Sequence record: PV467748.1
Direction: 5' to 3' (one strand)
From: a phage
DNA length: 64,000 nt
In this document: positions 3,219-64,000 of the stretch, piece by piece
How the letters are laid out: the number at the start of each line of letters is the position of its first letter
Numbering within the stretch: the stretch's first letter is position 1
Position numbers and translations under genes: made by a program
The notes under the pieces: model-generated
The model's database searches: none
What the model was told of the DNA's origin: nothing
What the model saw: the letters and a program-made list of their open reading frames with translations, nothing else

Positions 3219-3617
3219 TTATTTCATTTTTGCTAGGCAGATTTCATTGGCTTCCCATTGAGCTTGCTTAATAATAGCTTTGGATACAGGAACCCTTTGG
3301 CCATAAGTTTTTGACGTTGAGAGAACAATGTATTTGTTTGCTTCATTATGCCAGCCCCGTGATTTTTCGCCATGGGTGCCTTTAACTACAGCTGACACCT
3401 CAACAGAGCAACCACCATCAGAAATCTTGGTTTCGACAATCCATTCATTTCTCTCAGCAGCTTCAAGTTCCAATCTAGTTTTTTCTTCATACATCGCGGC
3501 CCAATCAGTTTTTGCCAAGTTGAAAGTAAGAGCTTTCTCTAATTCTTTGGCATATTTTTGTTGTTCAGGTGTTAATGAATTATACAACTCTTGCATTTCT
3601 TTATCTTCGATATTCAT
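3219..3617 (-). CDS. hypothetical protein
   Basis: ORF track; ATG with GAGGAG RBS; early-type promoter just upstream. Confidence 0.6.
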   Translation of the reverse strand: MNIEDKEMQELYNSLTPEQQKYAKELEKALTFNLAKTDWAAMYEEKTRLELEAAERNEWIVETKISDGGCSVEVSAVVKGTHGEKSRGWHNEANKYIVLSTSKTYGQRVPVSKAIIKQAQWEANEICLAKMK

Positions 3618-5576: not shown

Positions 5577-5651
5577 TGGTATCCCGCCCTGGGATCGAAC
5601 CAGGACCGCAAACTTAGAAGGATCGTATGCTATCCATTACACCAGCGGGAC
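5577..5651 (-). tRNA. tRNA-Arg (anticodon TCT), CCA encoded
   Basis: Minus strand: acceptor GTCCCGC/GCGGGAT, T-arm CCTGG-TTCGATC-CCAGG, anticodon loop CTTCTAA, 3' ACCA; T4 encodes a tRNA-Arg(UCU); anticodon stem has one mismatch. Confidence 0.75.
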
Positions 5652-5656
5652 GTAGT

Positions 5657-5733
5657 TGGTGACCCAGACCAGATTTGAACTGGTAACCTTTCCCTTATGA
5701 GGGGACTGCTGCTAACCATTGAGCTACAGGGCC
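5657..5733 (-). tRNA. tRNA with CAT anticodon (Met or Ile-lysidine type), CCA encoded
   Basis: Minus strand: GGCCCTGTAGCTCAATGG...CCCCTCATAAGGG...GGTTCAAATCTGG...CACCA; anticodon loop CTCATAA. Confidence 0.75.
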
Positions 5734-5818
5734 TTAATTCTATTATGAAAGGCTCTTTGAGGGAAGAACCTTTGGTAATAGAGGGTATTAATGATAGAGT
5801 AATAATATCATATAATTC

Positions 5819-6295
5819 TTAAAGCATATCAAGTGCTTTCACATCAGGAATTTTAATTTCTTCTTCAATGATATACAGCTTGACATAAGAAATTACACGG
5901 ATAAAATCGCCATCATATTCACAAGCCATACCAAGGAGCTCAGTAAGGGCTTCATTCAAGTAGTATTCTTCCTCGTCGTCATTCAGCAAAGCTTCTAAGT
6001 CTTGGACCCAAAGGACTTTATCTAAAAATTCAGGAGTCAACTGGCCTGATTTTACACCAGATTCAATGTGAGCAATAACCAAGTGCTTAACTACGTCCCA
6101 TTCCGAATTACCACATTTATCCGGGTTGTTGCAATGCGAACCATGGAAAAGTTCTAGGATATATTTGTACTGTTGGATTTCATGTTCTTCTACGCCAAAT
6201 ACAGTCTGGGTTTTATAGTTATCGCCATCATTTTCCCAGGTTTCAATTTCAATCGCATAACCTTTAGGGATAGTTTGTCCGAATTTAATATTCAT
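5819..6295 (-). CDS. hypothetical protein
   Basis: ORF track 5819..6304 begins with GTG; trimmed to ATG overlapping upstream stop (ATGA). Confidence 0.55.
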   Translation of the reverse strand: MNIKFGQTIPKGYAIEIETWENDGDNYKTQTVFGVEEHEIQQYKYILELFHGSHCNNPDKCGNSEWDVVKHLVIAHIESGVKSGQLTPEFLDKVLWVQDLEALLNDDEEEYYLNEALTELLGMACEYDGDFIRVISYVKLYIIEEEIKIPDVKALDML

Positions 6296-6582
6296 TGCGG
6301 CCACATATTAATGTAATCAAGTTTAATAGAAGCAATCTTCAAAGGATTTTTAAAGATGTCGTATTCGACCAATCCGTTTTCAGTTGCGGTGTAGAAAGTA
6401 AAGTTAACAGAATTATAACGGCGACCATTAACTTTTAGTTTAACGTCGCTTGAACTACGACCAATATTAACCTGTTGGACATCAAGCACAGCATCTTTGC
6501 CAAAGTTGCGAATCAGTAGCTCTGCTGCAACCTGGTCTGAATTATATCCATTCTCTGGATTAGTAACCTTAACGTATAACAT
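6292..6582 (-). CDS. hypothetical protein
   Basis: ORF track; ATG adjacent to upstream stop. Confidence 0.55.
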   Translation of the reverse strand: MLYVKVTNPENGYNSDQVAAELLIRNFGKDAVLDVQQVNIGRSSSDVKLKVNGRRYNSVNFTFYTATENGLVEYDIFKNPLKIASIKLDYINMWPQ

Positions 6583-6984
6583 TTAACCCTCGTCTACAAT
6601 AGTATGGGTATTAGCATTAACAATCTGCCACCAGTCAAAACGATCGGAGCCGTAAAGAAACTTATTCTCGTTTTCTTTAACAATTTCACGTAGTTCATCT
6701 TCAGTGGCAGCTTTAGCGATTAAATCGGTATAGCCACCACGTGGATAGTAGTTATCACCCGCGAACAGAAGGAAATTTACTTTACCAGAAGGAACATATG
6801 CTTCCTTAGGATACTTGTTTCCTGCTTGGTCTACCACTTCAATATAACGGTAAGGAATATCAGTACTTTCAACCCATTGCCAAGCCGCAGCAGGGGATTC
6901 AAAAGCATCTACACCTAAACGGTTATCTTCATCTTTAGACGGATTATTTTCATAATCCGCATATACATAATATTCAACGTTCAT
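6583..6984 (-). CDS. hypothetical protein
   Basis: ORF track; TAATG coupling with upstream gene. Confidence 0.55.
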   Translation of the reverse strand: MNVEYYVYADYENNPSKDEDNRLGVDAFESPAAAWQWVESTDIPYRYIEVVDQAGNKYPKEAYVPSGKVNFLLFAGDNYYPRGGYTDLIAKAATEDELREIVKENENKFLYGSDRFDWWQIVNANTHTIVDEG

Positions 6985-7169
6985 TATTCACCTTTAGAGA
7001 TTTTATCCATAACGAAAGAAATTGAACCAATTAAGAATGCCACTACTAAAGAAATTATATTCTCGGAAGTTGAAAGCATATCGAGCATGAATCCTGTAAA
7101 CATACTAAAGCCAAAAGCGGTAACAGCGGCCAGTGCAGTAACATTTCTAATTAATTCACAACGTTTCAT
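6984..7169 (-). CDS. small membrane protein
   Basis: ORF track 6984..7181 begins with TTG; trimmed to ATG (MKRCEL...) after GGAG; two hydrophobic helices. Confidence 0.5.
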   Translation of the reverse strand: MKRCELIRNVTALAAVTAFGFSMFTGFMLDMLSTSENIISLVVAFLIGSISFVMDKISKGE

Positions 7170-7191
7170 TTTATTCTCCAATCACTCATTT

Positions 7192-7235
7192 GTTTTGATA
7201 GGACTATAGTACCATCACTAAAGCCCGTTGTAAAC
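7192..7235 (-). promoter_or_regulatory. conserved early promoter/leader element, copy 2
   Basis: GTTTAC-N18-TACTAT-AGTCCTATCAAAACA on minus strand, upstream of the 6984..7169 gene. Confidence 0.55.
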
Positions 7236-7237
7236 AA

Positions 7238-7510
7238 TTATTTTAAATAAATTGCATATTTTTTATAACCAGCTGTCTCGTGGCGCAGCCCTTTTTCATT
7301 AGCAAAACGTTCAATATTATTGATTTGATTCTGGTCAAGTTCTGACGTGTCAAATACAAAAAAGTTTCGCTTGTTGCCTAAAGTTACATGATTAGTCAAA
7401 TCGATGTTATAGAGATGATTTATATTATCAATCATGGTCTTAACAGATTTGTTAATTTTTGCTTCTTCATTAAGAATAGATTCAGCGATAAATTCTTGAT
7501 AAGTTTTCAT
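7238..7510 (-). CDS. internal head protein with capsid-targeting sequence (MKTYQEFIAE|S), IPI-like size
   Basis: ORF track 7238..7555 trimmed to MKTYQEFIAE, which is identical to the T4 internal-protein capsid-targeting sequence as I recall it. Confidence 0.7.
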   Translation of the reverse strand: MKTYQEFIAESILNEEAKINKSVKTMIDNINHLYNIDLTNHVTLGNKRNFFVFDTSELDQNQINNIERFANEKGLRHETAGYKKYAIYLK

Positions 7511-7535
7511 TTTGATTTCCGTGTGGTTGGTTTGT

Positions 7536-11197: not shown

Positions 11198-11209
11198 AGT
11201 GCCTCCTTA

Positions 11210-11217
11210 TAAATATT
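11210..11217 (+). promoter_or_regulatory. T4 late promoter TATAAATA for gene 53
   Basis: Exact TATAAATA about 26 nt upstream of the gene 53 ATG. Confidence 0.6.
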
Positions 11218-11242: not shown

Positions 11243-11845
11243 ATGCTCTTCTCATTTTTCGACCCTATAAATTACGAATCAAAAACAGTCAAGGCAGATT
11301 CCGGCTCATTAACAAATGCCGATGTATTGAGCGTACCGATGACTGATATATTTAGAAATTATAAAGAATATTTTGATAGAGTGGCTAAAAATTATACACT
11401 AAAAACTTATTATATCAATGGAGCCCCGCGTCCGGAAGAATTAGCCCATCAACTTTATGGTAACGTGCAATTATATTGGGTTTTATTGATGTGTAATAAT
11501 ATATACGACCCTTATTACGGCTGGATTACAGGCCAAGAAGTTGCATATCAAGCAGCTATTCAACGTTATGCTACTGCAGGCGGAAACCAAGTTCTTTATC
11601 ATGTCAATGAAAAAGGTGAGAAATTCTGGAATCTTGTTAATACCCCAGAAAATCCTTATACTTGGTACGATAAAGGCGATACAGAAAAACGTTATCCTCA
11701 ATATGAAGGTCCTTTGGCCGCAGTAGATATTTACGAGGATGCCATTCGTAAAAATGAATATAAGCGCGAAATAAAGATTATAGACCCTAATGACATCGAG
11801 TCCTTTGTTTCCGCTTTAATTAGAGAAATGGAAAAAGCGCTATGA
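11243..11845 (+). CDS. 53: baseplate wedge protein gp53
   Basis: N-terminus MLFSFFDP and size match T4 gp53 as recalled; synteny. Confidence 0.8.
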   Translation: MLFSFFDPINYESKTVKADSGSLTNADVLSVPMTDIFRNYKEYFDRVAKNYTLKTYYINGAPRPEELAHQLYGNVQLYWVLLMCNNIYDPYYGWITGQEVAYQAAIQRYATAGGNQVLYHVNEKGEKFWNLVNTPENPYTWYDKGDTEKRYPQYEGPLAAVDIYEDAIRKNEYKREIKIIDPNDIESFVSALIREMEKAL

Positions 11846-13629
11846 TTAACATGTCTGATAATGTCAGTTGGTTCGTCGGTGTAGTTGAAGACCGAATGGA
11901 CCCACTCCAACAAGGCCGAGTACGCGTGCGAGTATGGGGTATGCATCCATATGAAAAAGTGCAAGGTCCAGTAAAAGGCCTTCGTACAGAAGATTTACCA
12001 TGGATGTCTGTATTAATGCCTACATCTTCCGCCTCTGTTTCAGGTATTCAAACCGCTATGACTGGTATGGTTCCTGGTACACAGGTTTATGGGCATTTTC
12101 TTGATAAGTGGAAATTAAACGGACTTGTCCTTGGTACATACGGTTCCGCTTCAAGACAGAAGGCTAATCCTAATGAAGGTTTTAGCGATCCAACAGGTCA
12201 ATATCCGCTTTATTTAGGTAACGATGCCGCTGCACTAAACCGAGGTGGTGAAGTTGGATATGATGCCACTTCCAACGTAATACAAGATGCAAACACCGAT
12301 GTAGGTATTAATCCTGATGGTTTAGATTTGAGCCAGGTTAAGCCTGATGATAATCCTAATTTCACAATAGAAAACATGCTTCACCGTGATGAAGGGCTTC
12401 GACTGAAGGTATATTGGGACACCGAAGGATACCCTACTATAGGTATAGGCCACCTTATCGCCCCACAACCTATTAGAGATATGAATCGAATAAACAAAAT
12501 ATTATCTAATCAGGTAGGACGAGAAGTTAAAGGTAACCCTGGTGCAATATCAATGGATGAGGCTTCTAAATTATTCCAAGAAGACCTTAAAAAAGTCCAA
12601 AACGATATAGGTCGGCATAGTGTTGTAGGTCCTGTTTACAATAAAGAAAACCGTTCAAGACAAATGGCTCTTGAAAACATGGCTTTCCAAATGGGATTAG
12701 GTGGATTGGCTAAATTCCGTGGAATGCTTAGTGCAATGCTAATAGGCGATTATAAAAAGGCATTTGAGGAAGCTCGTAATTCAGTATGGTTTAACCAAAC
12801 TAAAGGTCGCGCATCAAGGGTATCAATGATTATCCTTACAGGTAACATGGAATCATATGGTATTATGGCCCCTAAAGAAAGGTCATTTAATGGTCGTTCG
12901 TATAGAATGATTCAAACATTTGCTGCCCCTACAAATTCGGACCCTGCAGACCCGTGGACTCCAGAAGACACAAGGATTCTTTTTAAAGAACCTGATTCTA
13001 GTTATAAAGGCGAATATCCATATGTCCAAACCATGCAAACTGAAGGTGGGCATATCCAAGAATTCGATAATACCCCAGGGCAAGAACGTTATCGATTAAT
13101 CCATCCTACCGGTAGTTATGAAGAAGTTGCTCCTGATGGTCGTAAAACTTCTAAGACGGTAGCCGATGGTTATTATATGACCCAAGGCGATTCAAATACT
13201 TATGTTGGTGGTAATAATAAAGTCAACGTTGGCGGTGATGAAACCTATTATAATATGGCTAACGTTCGCCGTCAGACTGATGGGTCTGAAAGCATTCATA
13301 TTCGAGGTAATGAAACCAAAACTGTAGAAGGTAATGGAACTCTGCTTGTTAAAGGAAATGTTAAAATAGTTATTATGGGTACTGCTGATATAACTGTTGA
13401 ACAAGAAGCATATATTACGGTTGAAAAGGATACAACAGTTAATGTCAACCAGAATGCAGATATAAGCGTTAAACAAAAGGCCACAATCAATGCTCAAAAT
13501 ATGGATGTAAATGTCGAACAAGATTTAAATTTTGCAGCGACGAACATTAATTTAAACGCATCAAATACTGTGCATATGGATGGTGGTTCATTAGCTAAAG
13601 TATCTGGTGGCAACGTACAGGTCGGTTAA
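11842..13629 (+). CDS. 5: baseplate central spike / cell-puncturing device with lysozyme domain gp5
   Basis: OB-fold N-terminus (WFVGVVEDRMDPLQQGRVRVRV), T4-lysozyme-like YWDTEGYPTIGIGHLI, C-terminal beta-helix repeats (VNVNQNADISVKQKATINAQNMDVNVEQ). Confidence 0.9.
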   Translation: MINMSDNVSWFVGVVEDRMDPLQQGRVRVRVWGMHPYEKVQGPVKGLRTEDLPWMSVLMPTSSASVSGIQTAMTGMVPGTQVYGHFLDKWKLNGLVLGTYGSASRQKANPNEGFSDPTGQYPLYLGNDAAALNRGGEVGYDATSNVIQDANTDVGINPDGLDLSQVKPDDNPNFTIENMLHRDEGLRLKVYWDTEGYPTIGIGHLIAPQPIRDMNRINKILSNQVGREVKGNPGAISMDEASKLFQEDLKKVQNDIGRHSVVGPVYNKENRSRQMALENMAFQMGLGGLAKFRGMLSAMLIGDYKKAFEEARNSVWFNQTKGRASRVSMIILTGNMESYGIMAPKERSFNGRSYRMIQTFAAPTNSDPADPWTPEDTRILFKEPDSSYKGEYPYVQTMQTEGGHIQEFDNTPGQERYRLIHPTGSYEEVAPDGRKTSKTVADGYYMTQGDSNTYVGGNNKVNVGGDETYYNMANVRRQTDGSESIHIRGNETKTVEGNGTLLVKGNVKIVIMGTADITVEQEAYITVEKDTTVNVNQNADISVKQKATINAQNMDVNVEQDLNFAATNINLNASNTVHMDGGSLAKVSGGNVQVG

Positions 13630-13630
13630 T

Positions 13631-15694
13631 ATGAATTACTACGATAAAGTTGATGAAGTGGTAGGGACTGTAACAAGTCCCTGTGATGACGCAGTAGGAC
13701 CCGGTGAATATCGCCGGGTTAAATGGGAATTATATAACCCAACAGGTGCTTTTATTCAACCCGGGAATGGCGTTGAATGGGATACCGAGATTATTCCACT
13801 AGCTACACATTTATACACACAAAATCCATTTGGTAATAAGTCCGAAACTTTTCCTGCACCTCCCCCGCCGGAAGATGGAACAAGTCAAGGTATCTGGTGT
13901 GCTAAACTCGGAATATTCTTTATTACGCAATTGGATTTAGAAAATTATGTAGAATCGATTGGTGCAACTCTTTTGCCCGGTAATGATTGGTATGGCGCTG
14001 ATTTATCAAAATCTGTATTGTATAAAACATCTATTGAATATGATATGTATCGCATCGAAAACTGTGGCGGTGTATGGACGTCACAAGGCCCCAGAATGGA
14101 CCCCAGGACGATGATTGCAGTTACGGCTGATTATCATATGTATGTCAACTTTAACGGCCTTGGTGACTCCCGCAGGGCTTATTTGAAGTACTATGAGACA
14201 AAACCTTGTACTTATGTTGGACTGGTATTAAATCTAGATGTTGATATGAGTATCCCAGGAACTCCGATTCCAGGACCGGTATCCATCGGGTCTTTACCAC
14301 CAGAAATAACCGGGCGAGCCAGGGCAATAAGCTGTGTTCCTTTTACAGCGGAATTCCCTTACAACGGATTGACCAATGCGATTATGGCTTCATGGAATAC
14401 ATCTAGGAATTCATTCAAATTATATTGGGATATGCTCCCTGGATGGCCATCATCTGGTGGGACCGATTGGGAAAAATTCTTCGATTCTGGGTATAGTAAG
14501 CTATCGGTCGCAATGGAAGAGCTAGGCAACTCAGCTGTTGCTATGTGTCAATATGTTCAGCAAATGGCTTTTCTTGCATTTAAAGATGCCATATCACAGG
14601 TCTTGAATATTGTTGGTGGTGGGTGGGACTTACTTAAAAGCTTTTTACCCTCGATTACTATTATGGGCATGACTATTGACCTGGAAGACCTCTGCACTTC
14701 AGGTGATGGTGTACAGAAATTAAAAGAAGCATGGAAAAACTTTAATTTAGAAGAAACCATCCAATCGATTTATTCTGCCATTGGGTCGGCATACGATTAT
14801 TCGGTTGAACGCGTCAAGATGTATTCGCGTGACCTTATTGATGCAATTACAGACTTGTATGACTGGGCCTGGTCTCAATTGCTTATGGCTGGTGTTGCAT
14901 TATCAAAACTGTGTGTAGACCTCGCTCAAATATGGAGTATGCCTCCTATAGTTCCGAACCCAGTTTGGAGCGTTATTACTGCGGTCAAGGAAATGATGAA
15001 GCAAGTTAAACCACTGGACATGATAATGAGCGGTAACTTTCCAGGATTCACGGCATCAGATGTTTATCAAGTGGTTATGGAAAAGGTAGACCAGAAAATA
15101 GACGAAGCTTATGCAATGATTGAGGCTCTTAAAACCCAGGCACTCAATCTGTGGAATGAGATTAAGCTCAAAAAGCAAGAAGTACAAAAACAAGCTATTG
15201 AATTTAAACAATATCTTTCAGGAATGTACGAAAAAGTTACAGACGAGCTAACTGCTCAGAAGGAAGCCGCATTAGCACAAGCTGAAGCTGCACTTGAACT
15301 TTTAAAGAATAAATATAAACAGATTAAGAACTCTATTACCGAAAGTCAAACCTCCGTTTCTGATGTATTAGATATGGCTTTAGAAGAATTCAAAAAACTT
15401 CCTATTGTGGCTCAAATGGAAGAACTTCTCGGTATGCTCGGAGCTACTGTAGATGATATCATGGTTATATACGAGAACTCAGTAACTAAAGCAAAATCTT
15501 TATATCACGAATTTACTGATGGTTCCAGGTCAATGAAAGACTTGTGCAAATCAATGTATAACCAAATATCAACATTATCCTTAAGTAAGGTGGTACAATG
15601 GATTAATAAGATGCTGGGAATATTCGGTTTAACGATTGCATTTCCATCCCTTTCCATTTGCATACCTTGTTTAGAATCTCCTACTAGGAATTAA
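13631..15694 (+). CDS. large protein of unknown function between gene 5 and gene 6 (687 aa), C-terminal coiled coil
   Basis: ORF track 13607..15694 trimmed to ATG 1 nt after gp5 stop; ends 1 nt before gp6 ATG; no PAAR-like repeats seen. Confidence 0.7.
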   Translation: MNYYDKVDEVVGTVTSPCDDAVGPGEYRRVKWELYNPTGAFIQPGNGVEWDTEIIPLATHLYTQNPFGNKSETFPAPPPPEDGTSQGIWCAKLGIFFITQLDLENYVESIGATLLPGNDWYGADLSKSVLYKTSIEYDMYRIENCGGVWTSQGPRMDPRTMIAVTADYHMYVNFNGLGDSRRAYLKYYETKPCTYVGLVLNLDVDMSIPGTPIPGPVSIGSLPPEITGRARAISCVPFTAEFPYNGLTNAIMASWNTSRNSFKLYWDMLPGWPSSGGTDWEKFFDSGYSKLSVAMEELGNSAVAMCQYVQQMAFLAFKDAISQVLNIVGGGWDLLKSFLPSITIMGMTIDLEDLCTSGDGVQKLKEAWKNFNLEETIQSIYSAIGSAYDYSVERVKMYSRDLIDAITDLYDWAWSQLLMAGVALSKLCVDLAQIWSMPPIVPNPVWSVITAVKEMMKQVKPLDMIMSGNFPGFTASDVYQVVMEKVDQKIDEAYAMIEALKTQALNLWNEIKLKKQEVQKQAIEFKQYLSGMYEKVTDELTAQKEAALAQAEAALELLKNKYKQIKNSITESQTSVSDVLDMALEEFKKLPIVAQMEELLGMLGATVDDIMVIYENSVTKAKSLYHEFTDGSRSMKDLCKSMYNQISTLSLSKVVQWINKMLGIFGLTIAFPSLSICIPCLESPTRN

Positions 15695-15695
15695 A

Positions 15696-17654
15696 ATGGC
15701 TACTCCTACGAATTACCAATTAACAAGAACCGTTAACGCTATCCCAAAAGTATTTGTGGGAGCTACGTTTGAAGAGATTAAAAAGAATATTATCGATTGG
15801 CTTTCTAGCCAGGACGAATTTAAGGATTACGATTTCGTTGGTTCGCGAATGAATATCCTGATTGACATGTTAGCTTACAACACCCTGTATATGCAGCAGT
15901 TTGCTAATACCGCGGTATATGAATCTTTCATCGGTACTGCTAACTTGCGTTCCTCCGTCGTCCAGGCTGCACAGGATAACGGCTATTTGCCAAGTTCTAA
16001 ATCAGCAGCCAAAACAAGTATCATGTTGACATGTACTCAAGCCCTGAATGAAAAGAATATTCGTATCCCACGTGGTACTAAATTCCTGGCCTATGCCCGT
16101 GATACTTCAGCGGACCCATATGCTTTTGTTACCACGGAAAACGTTATTGCCGTACGTGATGTTAATAACCAATATCTTCCTATCGTATCTTTAGCACAGG
16201 GCCGTATTATTCGTACCGAACTTAAGTATGACCCTAAAACCCCTATTCTTATTCGTGACCCGGATATCGATAGACAAGAAGTTAAACTTTATGTTGATGG
16301 CGCAGAATGGGCTAACTGGACTAATAAATCCATGGTTCATGCTGGTAGTACATCAACAATTTACTATATGCGTGAAACCGTAGATGGTAATACTGAATTC
16401 TTCTTTGGTGAAGGTGTTGCTGAAAAATCAGTTGCAGGTGGGGTATTAGAAGCTAATTATATTGGTGGTTTAAAACCTGTTAAAGATGCCACCATTGTTA
16501 TAGAATACCTTCGTACAGACGGCGAAGTTGCTAATGGGGCAGTGGACTTTAGTTATGCGGATTCTTTGGCATATATTACGGTTGAAAAAATTACAGAAAA
16601 CTACGATGAAAATCCGGATTATGTAGGTGCTGATGGTGGTGGTGACCCTGAAGATATTGAACGTATTCGTGAATTGGCTGTAGTTAAACGTGAAGCCCAG
16701 ATGCGTGCTGTAACTGGTACAGATTATGATACATTCGTTTCAGAGCGATTTGGTTCTATTGTACAAGCAGTACAAACCTTTACAGACCCAAATAAACCGG
16801 GTTACGCCTTTGTTACCATTAAACCTAAATCAGGATTGTATTTGACGGCAGTACAACGTGAAGATATCCAAAATTATCTTTCAGAATTTAACTTGGCACC
16901 TATTACCCCTTCGGTTATTTCTCCTGACTACTTGTTCTTGAAGCATAAAATTAAGGTTTCATATGCACTGAACAAATTACAGGAATCCGAACAATGGCTA
17001 ACGGCCCAAATCCTTTCCCAAATAGACCGTTATTATATTAACGAAGTTGAAATATTCAACCATGGGTTTGCCAAGTCTAAAATGTTGACTTATATTGATA
17101 ATGCAGACCACAGTATCCTTGGCTCTTCGGCTACGGTAACAATGGTTCGCGAAGTATTAAACTTCTTCAAAACACCTGAAGCAGGTATTAAATACTATAA
17201 TCAATACACCAACCGTTCTGTAACTTCTAGTGAATTTGAGTTCGTCCCAACAAACGTATCGGATGTTGTTAAATCTTACAACGTACGTATTGTTGCCACA
17301 GATAAAGACGAACGAGGCGATGGTAAAATGGTTATAGGTCCTTTCCGACCTGGCGATGTAATTGAAAACCAATACATTCAACCTTATACCGGAGATGACT
17401 TTGATAAAATGGCAGCGCCTGCAGACCAATCAGTCTACTATATTATTGGCGAAATTGATTATTACTCAGATTTTATTTTCTGGGATATCGCCGCAATAGG
17501 CCTTACTTCCGACCGTTTTGAAGTCCAGTCTATTGAACTTTATGCAGGGCCAGACCAAGACAACATCTTTACCAAAGACGGTTCTTTAATCGTATTTGAA
17601 GATGACCTTCGTCCTCAGTACACAACTATAGAGTTGGAACCAATTACAATATAA
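15696..17654 (+). CDS. 6: baseplate wedge protein gp6
   Basis: N-terminus NYQLTRTVNAIPKVFVGATFEEIK matches T4 gp6 as recalled; size 652 vs 660 aa. Confidence 0.9.
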   Translation: MATPTNYQLTRTVNAIPKVFVGATFEEIKKNIIDWLSSQDEFKDYDFVGSRMNILIDMLAYNTLYMQQFANTAVYESFIGTANLRSSVVQAAQDNGYLPSSKSAAKTSIMLTCTQALNEKNIRIPRGTKFLAYARDTSADPYAFVTTENVIAVRDVNNQYLPIVSLAQGRIIRTELKYDPKTPILIRDPDIDRQEVKLYVDGAEWANWTNKSMVHAGSTSTIYYMRETVDGNTEFFFGEGVAEKSVAGGVLEANYIGGLKPVKDATIVIEYLRTDGEVANGAVDFSYADSLAYITVEKITENYDENPDYVGADGGGDPEDIERIRELAVVKREAQMRAVTGTDYDTFVSERFGSIVQAVQTFTDPNKPGYAFVTIKPKSGLYLTAVQREDIQNYLSEFNLAPITPSVISPDYLFLKHKIKVSYALNKLQESEQWLTAQILSQIDRYYINEVEIFNHGFAKSKMLTYIDNADHSILGSSATVTMVREVLNFFKTPEAGIKYYNQYTNRSVTSSEFEFVPTNVSDVVKSYNVRIVATDKDERGDGKMVIGPFRPGDVIENQYIQPYTGDDFDKMAAPADQSVYYIIGEIDYYSDFIFWDIAAIGLTSDRFEVQSIELYAGPDQDNIFTKDGSLIVFEDDLRPQYTTIELEPITI

Positions 17655-53551: not shown

Positions 53552-54032
53552 TAAAGAGATTTCTATTCCTAAATTGGGTCTTAAACACCAGAAATTGGTT
53601 AAAGATGAAAAAGACCCTTACAAGGCTCTTCACATATTAATGAATTCCATTTATAAAGATTTATCCGCGGCAGAGACTGATTTTGCCGCTCTTCACCTTT
53701 TAGAATTCAATGGAAGATTAAAAAGTAAAGTAACCAAAGACGGGTTTACTTATAACTTAAATGACCTTTATATTTGCCAACGACTTGAATTCCAATTCCA
53801 AGGTAAAACATTTAAATTTAAATCACATGAACCATTTCAAACATTTGGGCCTGTTGATAGTGTATTACAGTCCCTTTACCTTGGTGATGATGTACCAGAT
53901 TTTCTGGATATGCCTGCCTTTGTTGCTACATGGGCCGACGATATAACTTCTACTATAGCTATCCCTGGTCCTAATGGTCCTATCAAAGGATTGCTTAAAA
54001 TCATGGATATCTTAAATGAAGAACGAATCTAA
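53505..54032 (+). CDS. 28: baseplate hub distal subunit gp28, by synteny
   Basis: ORF track 53463 trimmed to internal ATG with GAAGG RBS giving 175 aa (T4 177); start uncertain. Confidence 0.6.
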
Positions 54033-55752
54033 TCAGAATAGTTTTCGTCGCAATAAACTGATTGAAGAAATGGCTCCTCAGCGTCGTGCTGAGGCGCTAG
54101 CCCAAACTCAGAACGACGAATTAGGAAATATATCAGATGTTTTATCCGATTCCCAGGCGGCGTCTGAATTGCTCTCTGAAGTGGTTGAGACAAAGTCCAA
54201 TCAGATTATTAGTTCTGTAGACCGAGTAGATAAAAGCGTCCAAGATGTTGTTGCTGGGACAGAATTAACGGCTGAAGCTATATCAGAACAAACTCAACAA
54301 TCTAAAGCTCTTTCGGATGCACTAAACGAAAAGATTAATAAGCTTTCTAATATGTTAGAGGCTAAATTTTCTGGTATTTCTATTCCACCGGAAGGGAGTT
54401 CATTAAAGGTTATTGAAGACTCTATTCCGGAAGAACCTAAGGCCGAAACTCCTAAAGTTCCTGCTGTTGTTGAAGATATTCTTCCGCCTGAAGATAATAA
54501 ACCTGACGCTGAATTTATGCCCGAGCCTCCTAAAAATTCAGATGAAGGTAAAGAAGGTGATAAGACTTCTCTTTCTGATAAAATTGAAGCCCTTACTAAA
54601 ATAACTGAAAAGGGATTTAAAGCTTCTATAGGCGTCGCTGATAGAATTTCAGGCATGCTTTTTAAGTATACCATTACCGCTGCCGCTGAAGCTGCTAAAC
54701 TCGCAGCAGGTTTAGTCCTTTTAATATTTGGTATAGATGCCATTCGCGTATACTTCCAATATTTCATGGACCAATTTGAGTCAGGGTGGAAAGAATTTAA
54801 CGATAAGTTTAAAGAGTGGGGACCATTACTTGAAGGGCTAATGACATGGGCCAAGAATGCTGAAGCCATGTTTAGTGAAGGAAACTGGTTAGGTCTGGCT
54901 GAAGCTATTATTCGTGGTATGGTTAATCTTACCAAAAATATGGCACAACTTTTAATGCTTGGTATTTCTAAGTTGATTTCTGCTATTTTAAGTAAAATAC
55001 CTGGTATGGGTGATTTAGCTGAAAACGTAGAGGCTTCTGCTTTAATGTCATATCAGCAAAATACCGGAGCCACTTTGGACGATGAAGACCAAACTAAAGT
55101 GGCCAAGTACCATGATAGACGTTCAGCCGAGGCTTTAGAAACAGCCGAGAAAATGAATAAGAAGTATAAGGATAAACCTGAGCTTATAAACCAGGCAGAG
55201 AAATACGGTAATCTTACTAAAGAACAAGCCGACCAATTACGCGCAGGTGGAATTGACACAAGCTTCCGTGACCTCCCTGAAGAAGAACGTTTAGAGTATT
55301 TCAAGAAACGTGATAAAGCTCAGGCTGATATTATTCGTTTGACACAAACCGCTGATAATATAATGAAGCCAGATTCTAAAGATATCGAAAATGCTAAAGC
55401 ATTTAAAGCTGATATCGAGAAACAATTGGCCGACCCTATTATGGCTAAAGGTGGGGCACCGAAAGACCTTAATATCCAGCAATTACTCGATAAGATGAAT
55501 AAATCTTTAGAGAAATTTAATGAAGCTGAAAAGCCTAAACCTGCTTCTGTAGCGGAATCTCCTGAAAATACCCAGGTTAAAAAGGTTGATGAGCAAATGA
55601 GAGCAAAGGAAAATGCTAAATATAGTCAGCAAGCTCCAACTCAAATAAATCAGCAAACGAATATCAAGAAAACGAGTAAGACAAGCTATAATATGCCTCC
55701 ACAGTCCTCTACTCCTGCTCCTGGTATGCGTCAAGCTACTAAAGTTAATTAG
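54016..55752 (+). CDS. 29: tail length tape-measure / baseplate hub protein gp29
   Basis: 578 aa (T4 590), helical low-complexity sequence; synteny. Confidence 0.8.
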   Translation: MKNESNQNSFRRNKLIEEMAPQRRAEALAQTQNDELGNISDVLSDSQAASELLSEVVETKSNQIISSVDRVDKSVQDVVAGTELTAEAISEQTQQSKALSDALNEKINKLSNMLEAKFSGISIPPEGSSLKVIEDSIPEEPKAETPKVPAVVEDILPPEDNKPDAEFMPEPPKNSDEGKEGDKTSLSDKIEALTKITEKGFKASIGVADRISGMLFKYTITAAAEAAKLAAGLVLLIFGIDAIRVYFQYFMDQFESGWKEFNDKFKEWGPLLEGLMTWAKNAEAMFSEGNWLGLAEAIIRGMVNLTKNMAQLLMLGISKLISAILSKIPGMGDLAENVEASALMSYQQNTGATLDDEDQTKVAKYHDRRSAEALETAEKMNKKYKDKPELINQAEKYGNLTKEQADQLRAGGIDTSFRDLPEEERLEYFKKRDKAQADIIRLTQTADNIMKPDSKDIENAKAFKADIEKQLADPIMAKGGAPKDLNIQQLLDKMNKSLEKFNEAEKPKPASVAESPENTQVKKVDEQMRAKENAKYSQQAPTQINQQTNIKKTSKTSYNMPPQSSTPAPGMRQATKVN

Positions 55753-58160: not shown

Positions 58161-60284
58161 CTACATTTTGAATTTATTTGATAAAGAAGAGATATCCAAA
58201 GACGCTGCAAGGATTTCCATAGCTTCGTTGCTTTCAGAAACGGATTCATTAACCAAGAATTGACTAAATCCATCCATCAGGCGAACTTCACCAGTTTCCA
58301 TCAAATGGTCACCATCGTAAACAGATTCGCTGAGCTCTGAAGGAGGTGTTACGGTAGCTTCCATAAGGTATTTGTGAGATACTCTATCATTCATGGCAAA
58401 AGCCGCTACTTTATCAACCTTCAACAATAATCCGCGCGGAAGGATAATTTCTGCTTCTTCGGCATATTCTGTAAGGTCACCAGGAGCGATAACTTTAACT
58501 GCTTCAGCACCTCGAATAACCATACCAATTTCAGCAATTCTATCTGCAGGACCTTCAGGTGCAATTGGATTACCAAACTCGTCTTCTTCCCATTCTACCT
58601 CTTCGTCATCGACTTCACCCACATCAGATGAACTACCACTAGCCAATTTAAACAACTCATCAGCTGAGGACAAAGAACCTTCACCACCAACAAAAACGGC
58701 TTGGTTGTCGAGGGCCATATAATTTTTACCGAATTCACCAAAGATGTTAGGCTTTAATGAGGCTGACACAAAGTTCTTAAAGTAAAATGTTTTGTTATCG
58801 ATATTATGGCGCAGAATTTTGTATGGCAAATCCTGACCACGATACAAAATAGTACCCTTAGGAAGTTTAATACCCTTAGTAAATGCTGAGTCTAAATCCT
58901 TAATCAATTTAATAGCCGTTGTATTGTTTTCGGATTCAGGTTTACCTAAAAGGAATAAGTTCATAGGAGCATATTCAGCCGCGCAATATTCAATAATAGC
59001 ATTGCTTTCGTCTTTGGTTAGGTCCTTAGGTTTAATGAGCTCGCCTGAATAAGCATATGCATCACTAATAGAATCGTTAACCAGTTTATAAACTGCTTCC
59101 ATAGCGAAAGCAATTCGAGAGGCCTTTTCTGAAGGGGAACCCTTAAAACGGGTACTCAGGTTATTAACAATTTTCTTAATAATATCCAGACTATTGGTTG
59201 TATTGATTTGCGAAAGACCACTTAAAAGTCTATCGACTTCTGTATTAAAAAATGCCATATTATTAGAGTAAATTTCAAACCCTTGTTTATCTCTATTAGC
59301 ATAATTTAGTTTAAATTTACTATCAGTCATTAAAGCGTGTGTGAGAGCAATAGTGTATCTAAAGTTGGCAAGGTCCTCGCTCTTAGATTTAAACTGAGAA
59401 GCCTGGCGCATTTTAGTAATAGCACCTTTTTTAAAGTTCTGGCTAATCTGTTCAATACCTTCATTCTCAGGGCCTTCAGCCGTGTGAACAGGTACAGAAG
59501 CTTCAAACTCATTATAAACCTGCAATTCTTTAGGGGACAAAGTTTCAGGTTCGGCAGTAGAATACTGCGCCGCTGCTGCCATACGACGGGAAATCTTAGT
59601 ACGGGTAATGACAGCCTTATCGGTACGTTTCTCTTCAACTTGTGCAATAGATGCCGCTACTGCTTCAACCTTACTTACGGCCTGGCCGGTTTTCTTAGAA
59701 ACATACACTTCGCCAACTTTAGACTCAACTTTAGTATAAAGATCGGCATTAATTTCAGGCATACCCTTGATATCTTCAATATTAGCACCACGACGTACTA
59801 AAAGAACGTAGGTATGTTTTCCGCTGAATTGGAACATGTCGTCAACAACTTTAAACTTACCACCGGTACGAGCCATAGCCAAACGAGCTAATACGCGCTG
59901 AACGGTAGGGCCCTTACCTTTCATTTTCTTAGTAGGGAAACGGAACAGAACTGCGTCCATTTTAAGTTTGTTTATTTGTTCGTATATGGTATCGAAAATG
60001 GTGTTCAGTGTACCAAGTGGATCGGTACCCAACCCGCCCTTGAGTTCTGCCGGAGCGCCTTTAGCTGACAAACTCATCAAAATAACATGAACATATTTGT
60101 CGCCCGGCTTAACCATTTTAATAGCGTCTCCTTGAGACGCATAAGATACCATACGAGCAACCAGATTATCATTACCTGGTGCTTGGATAGAGAAAATCTG
60201 TGGAATACCGGAACCCGGTTTAAGATTTGTTACTGGATAGTTTTTAGCGGAATCACTATCAAAAACCTCATTTAAATTTTCCAT
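58161..60284 (-). CDS. alt: Alt-like mono-ADP-ribosyltransferase, paralog A (packaged and injected in T4)
   Basis: 707 aa (T4 Alt 682); conserved N-terminal about 230 aa; C-terminal R-S-E motifs (YRGQ, SASL, EAE). Confidence 0.85.
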   Translation of the reverse strand: MENLNEVFDSDSAKNYPVTNLKPGSGIPQIFSIQAPGNDNLVARMVSYASQGDAIKMVKPGDKYVHVILMSLSAKGAPAELKGGLGTDPLGTLNTIFDTIYEQINKLKMDAVLFRFPTKKMKGKGPTVQRVLARLAMARTGGKFKVVDDMFQFSGKHTYVLLVRRGANIEDIKGMPEINADLYTKVESKVGEVYVSKKTGQAVSKVEAVAASIAQVEEKRTDKAVITRTKISRRMAAAAQYSTAEPETLSPKELQVYNEFEASVPVHTAEGPENEGIEQISQNFKKGAITKMRQASQFKSKSEDLANFRYTIALTHALMTDSKFKLNYANRDKQGFEIYSNNMAFFNTEVDRLLSGLSQINTTNSLDIIKKIVNNLSTRFKGSPSEKASRIAFAMEAVYKLVNDSISDAYAYSGELIKPKDLTKDESNAIIEYCAAEYAPMNLFLLGKPESENNTTAIKLIKDLDSAFTKGIKLPKGTILYRGQDLPYKILRHNIDNKTFYFKNFVSASLKPNIFGEFGKNYMALDNQAVFVGGEGSLSSADELFKLASGSSSDVGEVDDEEVEWEEDEFGNPIAPEGPADRIAEIGMVIRGAEAVKVIAPGDLTEYAEEAEIILPRGLLLKVDKVAAFAMNDRVSHKYLMEATVTPPSELSESVYDGDHLMETGEVRLMDGFSQFLVNESVSESNEAMEILAASLDISSLSNKFKM

Positions 60285-60287
60285 TAT

Positions 60288-62372
60288 TTACCCTTGGATG
60301 AATTTTTCTGGGATGTCATAGAGGTCTATGCATGAAGCCAAAAGAGGCAGTACATCAAACCGGGTAGATTTAACAAATGAATCAAAAGATACAGGGCTTT
60401 CGGAAGTATCGAAGTCATCTTGGTATACAACCAATTCACCAGTTTCCATTAGTACGTCACCATCATACACTACAGATTCTTGAAGCTCATCTGTTGTCAT
60501 AACTTCAGCTTGAATGAGTTTTGTATTATTAGATGTTGTTCCATCATTATTAGAAGCATCTGTTATTTTATTAACTTTGACCATTAATCCACGTGGTAGA
60601 ATAACTTCAGCTTCAGTTGCTATTCCGAGATTTCCTGGATATACAACATTAACTTTATGAGCACCGTCAATTGCCCATCCTATTTGAGCTTTAACGTAAT
60701 CAGGATTTTCCTTATACGCCCTTATTTCATTAGGGTTAATAGTTATTCCTTCTTCATTTTTATCGACTGTCAATTCATTGCGAACTTCCGGTTCTAAAAG
60801 ACCGATACCAGCGTGTGTAACACCAAATCGTCCAAAAATGATAGGGGTTAAAGAAGTAGATACAAAATTTCTGAAATAGAACACTTTATTTTTAACTAGT
60901 GCTTCGTATATAGGAGCAGTCATACTCTGGGCACGATAAACTGTGATGCCTTCTGGTATACGGTCGCCGTTTTCAAAAGCTGAATCTAAATTATTTATCG
61001 CAGATTCAATTTCTTTTTCACTCATTACCTCATATCGTTCTGGATTGTAGCGACCTAAAAGAAGATTATTGATGTCAGTATATCCTGAACCACAATATTC
61101 TCTGATACCACGCTTTTGTGATGGAGTATATTTAGAACCCTCACGAGCAATAGTAATATCAACCATAATACCGCCACCTACACCAGCAAAACTATAAACA
61201 CATTTTTTAATGAACTTGGTCTTAGTGGCTTTCCACTTGGACTCGGTTAATTCATTCCAGACGTCGTCAGGTTGACCTTTACGAGTTTTGTTATGCTTGG
61301 CCAACCATTTGGCTTTGTATTCTTCGAAAATGGTATTAATAGCAGAGGCATATTTTTCTAGAGCTTTAACAGATGTCAAAGGTTCGTTTTTGATGGCCGC
61401 AAGAATTTTATCTTTAATTTTCTCTTGGATTTCACCTATACCGTGAAGAGGAAACATTTTGTAATCGTAATGCAATTCTTCAGCAGTGCCTTCAGCTATT
61501 ATATTAGCAACCTTATTTTTAGCCGCAGGAGAATTGTTATTAGTAACCATTTCCTGGGCCTCAGGGATTAATGGAGCTGTTGCTGGTTTATTAAAATCCA
61601 CTGCAGTAGCTTCATATTTCTTAAACAGTTCACTTTCATTACGATAAGATTCTAACGATTGACTTGCTGCAATAGCACGACGCGAAATCTTAGTCTTGGT
61701 TATAACCATTTTATCAGTGCGACGTTCTTCAACTTTAGCAATACTGCCGGCAATAGCAGTTTCTTTAGTAACCTGCACACCTTCTTTTTTAGAAATATAA
61801 ACTTCACCGACATCAGAATCTACCTTAGTGTATAATTCGGAATTAATTCCAGGCATACCTTTGATATCTTCGATATCAGCTTGTTTACGAACTACTAGAA
61901 TATAAGTATGTTTACCAGTAAATTGGTACATAGCCGGAACTACTTTGAAGCGTCCACCTGTTTTTTGAGTTGCCAAACGTTGGATAATCCGTTGGACGAT
62001 AGGTCCTTGCCCTTTCATTTTCTTGGTTGGAAAACGGAACATCACAGCATCCATACGAAGCTTTTTAACTTGTTCGAATACTACGTCGAAAATGGTATTA
62101 ATAGCATCAATAGGAGTAGGGCCTAAGCCGCCTTTAAGTTCGGCTGGAGAACCTTTAGCTGAAAGGCTCATAAGGATAATGTGGGCGTATTTATCACCTA
62201 ATTTAACCTGTTTAATAGCATCGCCTTCAGAGGCATAAGATACCATACGAGCAACCAATTGGGATTCAGCATCGCCAATCTTCCAAATCTGGGGTACTTT
62301 AAGTTTTGGGTTTAAGTTTACAGTAGGCAGGGTGCCTTCGGACTCAAACACCTCATTCAATTGTTCGGTCAT
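60288..62372 (-). CDS. Alt-like mono-ADP-ribosyltransferase, paralog B
   Basis: 694 aa; N-terminal region highly similar to paralog A, divergent middle; R-S-E motifs (YRAQ, STSL, EAE). Confidence 0.85.
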   Translation of the reverse strand: MTEQLNEVFESEGTLPTVNLNPKLKVPQIWKIGDAESQLVARMVSYASEGDAIKQVKLGDKYAHIILMSLSAKGSPAELKGGLGPTPIDAINTIFDVVFEQVKKLRMDAVMFRFPTKKMKGQGPIVQRIIQRLATQKTGGRFKVVPAMYQFTGKHTYILVVRKQADIEDIKGMPGINSELYTKVDSDVGEVYISKKEGVQVTKETAIAGSIAKVEERRTDKMVITKTKISRRAIAASQSLESYRNESELFKKYEATAVDFNKPATAPLIPEAQEMVTNNNSPAAKNKVANIIAEGTAEELHYDYKMFPLHGIGEIQEKIKDKILAAIKNEPLTSVKALEKYASAINTIFEEYKAKWLAKHNKTRKGQPDDVWNELTESKWKATKTKFIKKCVYSFAGVGGGIMVDITIAREGSKYTPSQKRGIREYCGSGYTDINNLLLGRYNPERYEVMSEKEIESAINNLDSAFENGDRIPEGITVYRAQSMTAPIYEALVKNKVFYFRNFVSTSLTPIIFGRFGVTHAGIGLLEPEVRNELTVDKNEEGITINPNEIRAYKENPDYVKAQIGWAIDGAHKVNVVYPGNLGIATEAEVILPRGLMVKVNKITDASNNDGTTSNNTKLIQAEVMTTDELQESVVYDGDVLMETGELVVYQDDFDTSESPVSFDSFVKSTRFDVLPLLASCIDLYDIPEKFIQG

Positions 62373-62380
62373 AATAATTC

Positions 62381-64000
62381 CTATTTAAATAAATTTGATA
62401 ATTTTTCCATAGAATCTTCGTAAAGGATTTTATCATAACTTTCAAATGAAAGTACTGTGCTATACGAATTTTCTTCTGTGATTTGTTCAGAACCAATAAC
62501 TTCGCACTCCACCAATACGTACTTACCTATAGAACCCATAAGACCTTTAGAAGCACCATACACTTTATTAATTTTAAGCATTACGCCTCTAGGAAGAATA
62601 ACCTCAGTTTCTGTAGACCAATTTGCCAAATTACCTGGTACGATAACTTTAATTTTGTCCGCGCCTTTAATAATTAATCCAAGCTTAATTGTCTCTCTAG
62701 CACTTCCGGTTGCACTTTTAATTGTGTCTTCTAGATTATTATCTATATCGCTAGAAAGAGCTTCGGGATCTAAATTTGATTGAGCGTGTCCCATTTCGCC
62801 AAAAATATTAGGAGCTAATGAGGTAGATGCGAAAATAGGAAGATACATTACTTTATGTTTTATTGAATTCAAAGCCATTTCGGTGGGCATTATTTGAGAT
62901 CGATACACTATAGTTCCTTTAGGGAGCTTTGTACCGTTTTCAAAAGCAGAATCCATATCACCAATCATTTTTATCATTTCATCAGTAGTATCTGTTTTAC
63001 CTAATAAAAAGTTGTTAATGTGATTATATCCACCGCGAGTGTACTTTTTGATAGCCTCTTCTTGAGGTTTAGTTAAATTGGGATTGTCATCTATTTTAAA
63101 CAAAGGTTGTATAGATTTGGTATAGACTGCTACTAATGATTTTATTACTTCTTTTATTTTAGATTCTCTAGCCCATGTACCTTTAACTGAACCATCTAAA
63201 AGAGATGCGGCAACTAATCTAAGGACGTCCACATGTGTTTTACCTGATTTTAAAGCATTTATAACACCATTAGATTTATCTAAAGAATCTGATGATTCTA
63301 AAGCAAACTTTATATCTTTAATTAATTTAAGCCTATGCTCATCTATTTCAAACGACGGATTAACACCATTAAAAATATAATCTAAATATTCTGCCATTTC
63401 TTTAGAAGTATCTTTTAATACTTTAATACCGGCTGACGCTATTTGGCTTTCTTTAGAACCTTCAGAAGAATGCACTGAACTAGTAATAGATAAATCGGAG
63501 TAAACTTTTTTATGTTCTTCTGAAAATTTATTCAATCCTGACGGTTCTGATGTTGAGTATAGTGCATTTATTGCGGCTCGTTTAGAAACCTTTGTTTTGG
63601 TTATAACCATTTTATCTGAACGAGATTTTTCTATTTCATCTATAGATTTAGCTATGGCTTCTAGTTTAGTAACATCTTCACCTGTTTTCTTTGAAACATA
63701 TACATCACCAACTTCAGATTCAACTTTAGTATATAACTCAGCATTAATATTTGGGATGCCTTTTATAGATTCTATATTTTTATTTTTACGGTAGATAAAA
63801 ACATATGAATGTTTACCACTGAATTGGTACAAGGCGTCAAGGACCTTGAATTGTCCACCCGCTCTAGAAGCTATCAATTTGGCTAGGACTCTCTGTACGG
63901 TTTTTTCCTGCCCTTTCATTTTCTTGGTTGGAAAACGGAACATCACAGCATCCATACGAAGAGCTTTAATTTGTTCATAGACTATATCAAATATGGAACG
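62381..64000 (-). CDS. Alt-like mono-ADP-ribosyltransferase, paralog C (N-terminus beyond window)
   Basis: Reading frame stays open to the window edge (RSIFDIVYEQIKALRMDAVMFRFPTKK... aligns with about residue 95 of paralogs A and B); R-S-E motifs (YRSQ, STSL, ETE). Confidence 0.8.
   Translation of the reverse strand, partial: RSIFDIVYEQIKALRMDAVMFRFPTKKMKGQEKTVQRVLAKLIASRAGGQFKVLDALYQFSGKHSYVFIYRKNKNIESIKGIPNINAELYTKVESEVGDVYVSKKTGEDVTKLEAIAKSIDEIEKSRSDKMVITKTKVSKRAAINALYSTSEPSGLNKFSEEHKKVYSDLSITSSVHSSEGSKESQIASAGIKVLKDTSKEMAEYLDYIFNGVNPSFEIDEHRLKLIKDIKFALESSDSLDKSNGVINALKSGKTHVDVLRLVAASLLDGSVKGTWARESKIKEVIKSLVAVYTKSIQPLFKIDDNPNLTKPQEEAIKKYTRGGYNHINNFLLGKTDTTDEMIKMIGDMDSAFENGTKLPKGTIVYRSQIMPTEMALNSIKHKVMYLPIFASTSLAPNIFGEMGHAQSNLDPEALSSDIDNNLEDTIKSATGSARETIKLGLIIKGADKIKVIVPGNLANWSTETEVILPRGVMLKINKVYGASKGLMGSIGKYVLVECEVIGSEQITEENSYSTVLSFESYDKILYEDSMEKLSNLFK

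Follow-up and report, generated by a model that had tools for sequence, protein, structure and literature searches.

A large gene in the gene 5 to gene 6 interval of a Dhakavirus-type phage encodes a putative non-PAAR spike-tip protein that appears to be exchanged together with the end of gp5

In phage T4 the interval between gene 5, which encodes the baseplate spike, and the wedge gene 6 holds 5.1, segC, 5.3 and 5.4, with gp5.4 being the PAAR-type tip of the spike. In the 64,000-nucleotide phage sequence analyzed here (record PV467748.1; this whole stretch is called the window), the same interval is occupied by a single open reading frame (ORF) of 687 amino acids (aa), which raises the question of what stands at the end of the gp5 spike in this phage. 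We propose that the product of the 687-aa ORF is probably a large (77 kDa) non-PAAR spike-tip protein of the virion, which replaces gp5.4 and sits on a co-adapted gp5 end. The family as such is not new, since it was flagged in 2025 for phage RB43 as a proposed but unproven alternative spike tip; what is added here are its members in Dhakavirus and Tequatrovirus, the two-allele organization of gp5 end and tip, the boundaries of the exchanged cassette, and an apparently new N-terminal fold.

Judging from sequence comparison, the source phage is a T4-like phage of the JS98/Bp7 type and the ORF is the ortholog, in Dhakavirus, of RB43 orf205w. Its product falls into PHROG 5296 ("unknown function"; E=0, residues 1-682 of 685 profile positions), is 99.1 to 99.7% identical to "hypothetical proteins" of Bp7, WG01 (classified as Dhakavirus), SP18 and related phages, and aligns with RB43ORF205w (YP_239181.1) at 42.9% identity and 99% coverage. 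Mattenberger et al. (2025 bioRxiv preprint, PMC12407873) reported that RB43, RB16 and Lw1 have no gene 5.4 and that the 5.1-5.4 locus of RB43 holds orf205w, a gene for a protein of ~690 aa with a mixed alpha/beta part at residues 1-220 and a helical remainder, which they put forward as a putative RB43 spike tip of unusually large size. In their 17.7 Å cryo-electron microscopy map of the RB43 baseplate the tip of the spike is occupied by a larger protein, and a low-confidence AlphaFold model of orf205w fits it (PMC12407873). The protein described here is a full-length ortholog of orf205w and shares with it the position directly after gp5, an alpha/beta N-terminal part followed by helices, and the absence of gene 5.4. 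The two differ in host lineage (Pseudotevenvirus for RB43, Tevenvirinae/Dhakavirus here) and in the distance to gp6, which is 84 nucleotides (nt) in RB43 versus 1 nt here. The model given in the preprint is of low confidence, and the preprint contains neither a cassette analysis nor a family-wide co-occurrence analysis. The Dhakavirus protein is known here from its sequence and a structure model.

With respect to gp5 itself, an alignment of seven gp5 proteins defines two end types. Phages that carry gp5.4 have a gp5 ending in ...IDGSRI(D/N)(I/L)G (T4 ...IDGSRIDIG), and in phages that carry the big ORF gp5 is ~15 residues longer and ends in ...(K)(V/I)(S/T)GG(N/T)VQVG (here ...GGNVQVG). Compared with gp5 of VR25, a Gaprivervirus with 5.1 and 5.4, the window gp5 is 92 to 100% identical over alignment columns 401-520, with a dip to 68 to 80% in the lysozyme region before column 401, and in the last three 40-column blocks the identity is 0.72, 0.33 and 0.15. 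At the nucleotide level the homology of the window to VR25 stops at window position 13401 (~gp5 codon 520) and restarts at 15685 (blastn).

The same comparison can be made within T4's own genus, Tequatrovirus, in which SG1 (NC_054936.1) has the big-tip cassette in place of 5.1, segC, 5.3 and 5.4; with flanks that are 95 to 97% identical, SG1 and T4 form a natural near-isogenic pair. Their gp5 proteins are 95 to 100% identical up to column 520 and then only 35% and 15%, and beyond that column SG1 gp5 is 90 to 93% identical to the window gp5. Nucleotide identity between SG1 and T4 is 97.4% up to gene 5 codon ~502 and 95.6% from 10 nt before gene 6, and between these homologous flanks lie unrelated stretches of 2.3 kb in SG1, containing the variant gp5 end and the big ORF, and 1.6 kb in T4. 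On its right side the cassette ends where homology to gp5.4-type phages restarts, ~10 nt before gp6; this edge falls at 5029 in SG1, matching 5072 in T4 (coordinates of the extracted regions, blastn). Because the boundaries are the same in the SG1/T4 and window/VR25 pairs, the unit of exchange is the last 75 to 90 codons of gene 5 together with the tip gene or genes, and the variant gp5 module, as the left part of this swap cassette, is inherited with the tip gene.

Counts across sequenced phages show the same association. Full-length homologs of the 687-aa ORF are found in 216 of 50,697 phage records, and the last 80 aa of the window gp5 are found in 216 records as well. The counts of the top ten organisms and of the top eight hosts are identical for the two queries (Klebsiella, 113; Escherichia, 27; Enterobacter, 20; Cronobacter, 18; Citrobacter, 13; Proteus, 7; Salmonella, 4; Shigella, 3), the match being one of summary organism and host counts and not of individual records. 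When gp5 is divided, its N-terminus (206 aa) gives 275, 56, 84 and 607 for Klebsiella, Enterobacter, Shigella and Escherichia, respectively, the T4-type C-terminus 162, 36, 80 and 583, and the variant C-terminus 113, 20, 3 and 27. The two C-terminus counts sum to the N-terminus count exactly in Klebsiella and Enterobacter, to one below it in Shigella, and to three above it in Escherichia. The tip genes give 161, 36, 80 and 591 for gp5.4 and 113, 20, 3 and 27 for the big ORF, in the same order of genera, and the Escherichia excess for gp5.4 would fit fragment records or phages that are not T4-like. At the level of genus counts, these numbers fit two mutually exclusive alleles of spike end plus tip.

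The preliminary description of this locus, made from the letters of the window, had reported a single 687-aa ORF filling the gene 5 to gene 6 interval with gaps of 1 nt on both sides and no PAAR repeats, and our coordinates and searches agree with it on both points. The ORF starts with an ATG at 13631, 1 nt after the gp5 stop (TAA, 13627-13629), and its stop at 15692-15694 is followed after 1 nt by the gp6 ATG at 15696. A Pfam scan at E<=1 finds neither PAAR (PF05488) nor DUF4150 in it, so that no PAAR domain is embedded; the protein does not have the conical beta-structure fold of PAAR proteins, and hhalign finds no relation of the family profile to T4 gp5.4 (0.1% probability) or to T4 gp5.1. 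Scans of Pfam, NCBIfam and PHROG for the toxin, lipase and peptidase domains that the description had suggested looking for returned only sub-threshold coiled-coil families, and no Pfam or NCBIfam family lies above threshold.

A gp5.4 homolog elsewhere in the genome, another of its suggestions, was not found either. T4 gp5.4 has no tblastn match in the window, which is collinear with WG01 from ~63.3 to 127.2 kb. In a composite Dhakavirus genome made of the window, WG01 1-70000 and WG01 125000-169936, no gp5.4 or PAAR protein was detected by tblastn with the gp5.4 proteins of T4, Aeromonas Aes012, Acinetobacter Meroveus, Vibrio D508 and Campylobacter CPX (best E, 2.1), or by a hidden Markov model (HMM) built from them and run on 1,717 stop-to-stop segments of at least 40 aa (best E, 2.3). 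This absence is meaningful, for with T4 gp5.4 as the query the gene is recovered from 1,471 phage records at identities as low as 25%. What the ORF has in common with gp5.4 and other PAAR tips (PF05488; 4KU0, 4JIV, 4JIW) is the slot between genes 5 and 6 and the proposed site on the blunt end of the gp5/VgrG beta-helix, and by the genus-level counts the two genes exclude each other. Labels of gp5.4 in sequence records are inconsistent ("phospholipase," "PAAR motif of membran proteins," "baseplate hub needle," "RegA"). Relatives of the big ORF are mostly recorded as "hypothetical protein," and a small number carry the automatic label "tail length tape measure protein" or "baseplate hub structural protein." The description had named two outcomes that would count against it, the annotation of the gene in close relatives as a known conserved baseplate component and a PAAR domain embedded in it, and neither was found.

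The homologs are distributed over Dhakavirus, KM16, and phages of Proteus, Providencia and Morganella; RB43 (Pseudotevenvirus), Lw1 and Miller; SG1 (Tequatrovirus according to NCBI), with an equally similar ORF in G8 and PD112; phT4A (Slopekvirus), with near-identical copies in KP27, Matisse and Miro; and phages of Cronobacter, Citrobacter, Enterobacter, Pantoea, Yersinia and Pectobacterium. When 1.84 billion representative proteins were searched exhaustively with a profile, only 8 full-length clusters at 50% identity came back, along with fragments and weak tape-measure tails, and no bacterial or functionally annotated relatives; the family appears to be narrow and confined to phages. The position immediately after gp5 is kept in WG01, S13, RB43, SG1, phT4A and two metagenomic contigs, which carry the two most divergent members of the family. 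On one of these contigs a 764-aa homolog (31% identity) lies behind a beta-helix ending in ...FTGGTVSVG and ahead of gp25, gp6 and gp7, and on the other a 743-aa homolog follows a 389-aa gp5 without lysozyme domain, ending in ...FTGGTVVVG. This short gp5 (contig Ga0620835_007198, 219-1388), the partner of the most divergent member, keeps the OB domain and the beta-helix.

In Cronobacter phage S13 the family gene adjoins gp5 and the next gene is not gp6, which indicates that the linkage is to gp5 and not to gp6. S13 (NC_028773.1) is also rearranged around this locus, with gp48 before gp53, an extra 385-aa "tail protein" between gp53 and gp5, and, where gp6 would follow the big ORF, a block of ~18 small ORFs that are almost all encoded on the other strand. 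The N-terminally short homolog of phT4A (NC_055712.1; 485 aa) does not reflect a natural deletion, the truncation being caused by an assembly gap of 100 N at 3400-3500 of the extracted region.

An AlphaFold2 monomer model of the 687-aa protein, based on a 61-sequence alignment, has a mean predicted local distance difference test score (pLDDT) of 87.1 and a predicted template modeling score of 0.78. It divides the protein into the segments listed in Table 1. The N-terminal domain, whose fold in the model is apparently new, has invariant residues C18, Y27, R28, W50, W120, G122, A123, D124, K127, E136, E143, N144, G146 and C193. The segment that follows has pLDDT values per 10-residue block of 69 to 90 (mostly 74 to 90) in the full-length model and of 33 to 79 in a model of the N-terminal part only. 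The helical core (mean identity to the query, 0.61; entropy 1.23, with only the sub-block 640-687 lower, at 1.19) contains a hydrophobic helix at 417-435 (Kyte-Doolittle 19-residue score, 1.51) and the invariant motifs PP..PNP and G.FPGFT, and the coiled coil is the least conserved segment of the protein. In the C-terminal part, where the model places helices at 591-602, 631-647 and 649-664 and where the entropy is 0.85 at 631-660, residues 662-680 form the sole strongly hydrophobic stretch (19-residue score, 1.87). This tail holds Cys677 and Cys680, is modeled as a beta hairpin at 673-682, and has C677 and P679 conserved to at least 90%; no signal peptide is found in the protein.

The composition given in the preliminary description was borne out for the C-terminal coiled coil (long helices at 475-575), the hydrophobic Cys-containing tail and the richness in Trp (17 residues, 2.5%), and less so for a Pro/Gly-rich N-terminal part: with 5.2% Pro and 6.6% Gly overall, that feature is limited to local stretches such as FPAPPPPEDG at 75-84 and PGTPIPGP at 208-215. 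Foldseek with the full model against the PDB gave nothing at E<0.1, the top rows being helices of ABC exporters. In a PDB profile search the best match was Hbl-B, with an E of 0.007 that is not significant and no stretch passing alone, and MakA was matched by Foldseek at an E of 0.65 with TM-scores of 0.13 (query normalized) and 0.22 (target normalized). The protein therefore has no significant sequence or structure similarity to the ClyA family. What it has in common with ClyA-family proteins (Hbl-B, 2NRJ; MakA, 7P3R) and with the coiled coil of the type III secretion translocator IpaB are the long helical hairpins and one short hydrophobic element that can be modeled as a beta hairpin.

On the plus strand of the window the gene order is gp53, gp5, the 687-codon ORF, gp6 and gp7, with gaps or overlaps of only 0 to 4 nt between the genes downstream of a late promoter motif, TATAAATA, which heads this 53-5-ORF-6-7 late operon. 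Gp5 is recognized by Gp5_OB (3.3e-61), Phage_lysozyme (1.4e-10), Gp5_trimer_C and Gp5_C in Pfam and as PHROG 430 (3.6e-231). The AGGTCGG in its final codons is Shine-Dalgarno-like, and CAGGTnGGnTAA with an ATG close behind is also present in RB43, SG1 and S13, with stop and start overlapping in S13. The late promoter and the recurrence of this junction in relatives indicate that the ORF is a coupled member of the late baseplate operon. In a mechanically made ORF list the frame reaches further upstream, to a GTG at 13607 (695 aa), and the ATG is the start annotated in relatives (WG01_156). That the ORF is a real gene and not a chance reading frame follows from the probability of finding no stop in 687 codons at the base composition of the window (1.7e-20), from 14 synonymous versus 2 nonsynonymous codon differences to the WG01 copy, and from the 216 records with full-length homologs. 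In GC content neither the ORF (0.403) nor the gp5 end (0.347) stands out against the window mean of 0.396.

Table 1. Features of the spike locus in the window, with the segments of the 687-aa protein
Feature	Position	Strand	Basis or remark
T4-type late promoter motif TATAAATA	11208..11215	+	Exact motif, 28 nt upstream of gene 53
gp53	11243-11845	+	Profile match 2e-72
gp5, baseplate hub subunit/tail lysozyme/central spike, 595 aa	11842..13629	+	Pfam, PHROG
Variant C-terminal gp5 beta-helix module, ~residues 521-595, ending ...SLAKVSGGNVQVG	13402..13629	+	VR25/T4-type comparison
Coupling junction	13619..13633	+	AGGTCGG in last gp5 codons, TAA, one nucleotide, ATG
687-aa ORF, putative non-PAAR spike-tip protein	13631..15694	+	PHROG 5296, RB43 orf205w ortholog
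N-terminal alpha/beta domain, residues 1-200	13631..14230	+	Fold without PDB neighbor
Pro-rich linker/wrapping segment, residues 201-290	14231..14500	+	Confident only with helical part in model
Helical core, residues 291-475	14501..15055	+	Most conserved of the four main segments
Long antiparallel coiled-coil hairpin, residues 476-590	15056..15400	+	Sequence variable
Conserved C-terminal helices, residues 591-687	15401..15691	+	Nearly invariant columns
Hydrophobic C-terminal tail LGIFGLTIAFPSLSICIPC, residues 662-680	15614..15670	+	Kyte-Doolittle 1.87
gp6, baseplate wedge subunit	15696..17654	+	Five Pfam gp6 domain families, ~1e-37 to 1e-47

Elsewhere in the window, three tandem paralogs of Alt-like RNA polymerase ADP-ribosyltransferases (706, 693 and 523 aa; PHROG 802, E of 1e-147 to 7e-264) lie on the minus strand at 58161-63955, in a stretch where identity to WG01 falls to 86% and 75%. 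Genes for tRNA-Arg(tct) and tRNA-Met(cat) are located at 5577-5733 on the minus strand, and the patch beside them (region 5577-7520) is locally variable, matching WG01 piecewise at 88 to 91% versus 95 to 98% elsewhere.

How would such a protein act? The tip protein would be expressed late from the 53-5-ORF-6 operon, translationally coupled to gp5, and would dock on the end of the trimeric gp5 beta-helix, where the variant last 75 to 90 residues, ~15 longer than in T4 and ending in ...GGNVQVG, may form its seat. There it would take the place of T4 gp5.4 and, in the genome, of the whole 5.1-5.4 interval. Upon sheath contraction it would be the first phage component to enter the envelope and would be carried with the spike into the periplasm. 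After penetration, the helical core and the hydrophobic tail may engage the membrane or an inner-membrane partner and help to open the path for the DNA, with the coiled coil serving as a variable spacer; the larger tip may in this way take on more of the work after puncture than gp5.4 does. Such a step would be akin to the contact suggested between the T4 tip and PpiD and to the role suggested for tape-measure proteins. The T4 tip complex was reported to contact PpiD, an inner-membrane-anchored chaperone (PMC7600766), and T4 gp5.4 matters for injection into deep-rough lipopolysaccharide (LPS) mutants (PMC12407873). We infer, rather than observe, the presence of the protein in virions of the source phage, its stoichiometry, the domain that docks on gp5 and its membrane activity. 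A bolder version, to which we give rather little weight, is that the tip is a spike-delivered membrane-active device, whose helical core and C-terminal hydrophobic hairpin would refold into the membrane in the manner of translocators or alpha-pore formers and nucleate a DNA channel across the periplasm or inner membrane.

The preliminary description had suggested a structural add-on or a spike-associated cargo standing in the spike operon. A structural part at the tip is supported by the orthology to orf205w, the RB43 tip density, the co-exchange with the gp5 end and the absence of PAAR, whereas for a cargo or effector the domain scans gave no toxin, lipase or peptidase match. Several points nevertheless weigh against a spike-tip protein. 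The RB43 map has a resolution of 17.7 Å with C6 symmetry imposed, and the identity of its tip density is unproven (PMC12407873). A tip of 77 kDa is at odds with the idea that the tip "sharpens" the spike, and the evidence for the membrane step consists of hydropathy and of weak helical similarities, for which coiled-coil composition may be the reason. No proteomic detection of a family protein in virions was found in the literature: the papers on KP15/KP27 and on phiEap-3 contain no mass spectrometry, a literature search for RB43 and mass spectrometry gave nothing relevant, and a 2026 Klebsiella paper concerns gp5.4-type Jiaodavirus phages. The virion table of Morganella phage MP1 lists nothing between gp141 and gp147, the interval expected by synteny to hold gp5 and any homolog of the ORF, and it is uninformative because gp5 itself should lie in that missing interval. 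Finally, strict co-occurrence with a spike variant would equally be expected of a dedicated chaperone, an analogy provided by the DUF2169 chaperone of type VI secretion systems (T6SS), which has a novel fold and co-occurs strictly with VgrG-PIPY spikes (PMC11883445).

The last point leads to the alternative that the ORF encodes an assembly chaperone or adaptor, which would fold or cap the longer last strands of the variant gp5 beta-helix during hub assembly and then be released. Such a protein would be expected to occur in as many records as the gp5 C-terminus and to be transferred with it, the DUF2169 case is a precedent for it (PMC11883445), and attempts to obtain a stable complex by co-producing orf205w with a gp5 beta-helix fragment failed (PMC12407873). 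We nevertheless regard it as improbable, since RB43 particles carry extra mass at the tip, for which there is no other obvious explanation because gp5 is only ~15 residues longer and there is no other tip gene; a 687-aa protein that also has a long coiled coil and a hydrophobic tail under conservation would moreover be oversized for a client of ~90 residues. A further possibility is that the protein is carried in the tail but not on the outside of the spike tip, for instance in the lumen of the hub or tube, as an ejected, tape-measure-like protein that forms a membrane channel. Residues ~363-667 weakly and repeatedly resemble tape-measure proteins (PHROG 305 and 8462, E of ~1e-3), library-wide HMM matches of 5e-6 to 4e-4 are to proteins with PhageMin_Tail, and the few automatic tape-measure labels in GenBank point the same way. 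Residues 473-615 align by hhalign, at 90% probability and 19% identity, to the helical C-terminal region of one such tape measure, a class with PhageMin_Tail (PF10145) and apolipoprotein-like helices. This likeness is limited to coiled-coil sequence, though, and may be compositional, and such a place would leave it unexplained why the protein tracks the outermost 75 to 90 residues of gp5; we consider it very unlikely. As the tape measure itself the ORF was rejected: it has no PhageMin_Tail match, and the phage has a normal gp29 of its own at 54016-55752 (PHROG 1283, 1.8e-220), unrelated to the ORF (hhalign, 0.2% probability), with gp27 and gp48 present as well. It is less likely still, to the point of being hardly credible, that the ORF encodes a nonstructural late protein that is anchored in the inner membrane by its C-terminal segment, acts for instance in superinfection exclusion or lysis timing, and adjoins gene 5 by accident. 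A single strongly hydrophobic segment at the very C-terminus and the lack of a signal peptide would suit such an anchor, and the T4 interval does contain genes (5.1, segC and 5.3) with no known structural role. Accidental adjacency does not, however, account for a linkage to gp5 that survives divergence to 31% identity and also holds where a gene other than gp6 comes next, for the co-transfer with the gp5 end and the translational coupling in a structural late operon, or for the extra density at the RB43 tip.

A spike-tip protein of this kind would have consequences beyond this phage. The tip is what meets the envelope first when a T4-like tail proceeds from puncture of the outer membrane to a path that conducts DNA across periplasm and inner membrane; a second, unrelated tip of eight times the size of PAAR would mean that the tip position tolerates radically different solutions. 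If the tip does act as a membrane-active device, it would be a phage counterpart of the tip-borne effectors of T6SS on a new fold. With the "evolved" PAAR/PIPY effectors, which have C-terminal extension domains, and DUF2169 of those systems (PMC11883445) it shares a tip with extra domains and the tie between a spike variant and a partner gene, and it differs from them in lacking PAAR, PIPY or a recognizable toxin domain, in its predicted place on a phage virion and in that homology was not detected. The big tip is present in 216 sequenced phages of Enterobacterales, including many therapy candidates against Klebsiella, Enterobacter and Cronobacter, in which the gene is now labeled "hypothetical," "tape measure" or "baseplate hub" depending on the record. 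Natural controls are at hand in T4 and the SG1/G8 group, which share 97% identity on the flanks of the swap and differ by gp5 end plus tip, and with them the effects of tip type on host range, LPS core dependence and injection could be measured directly.

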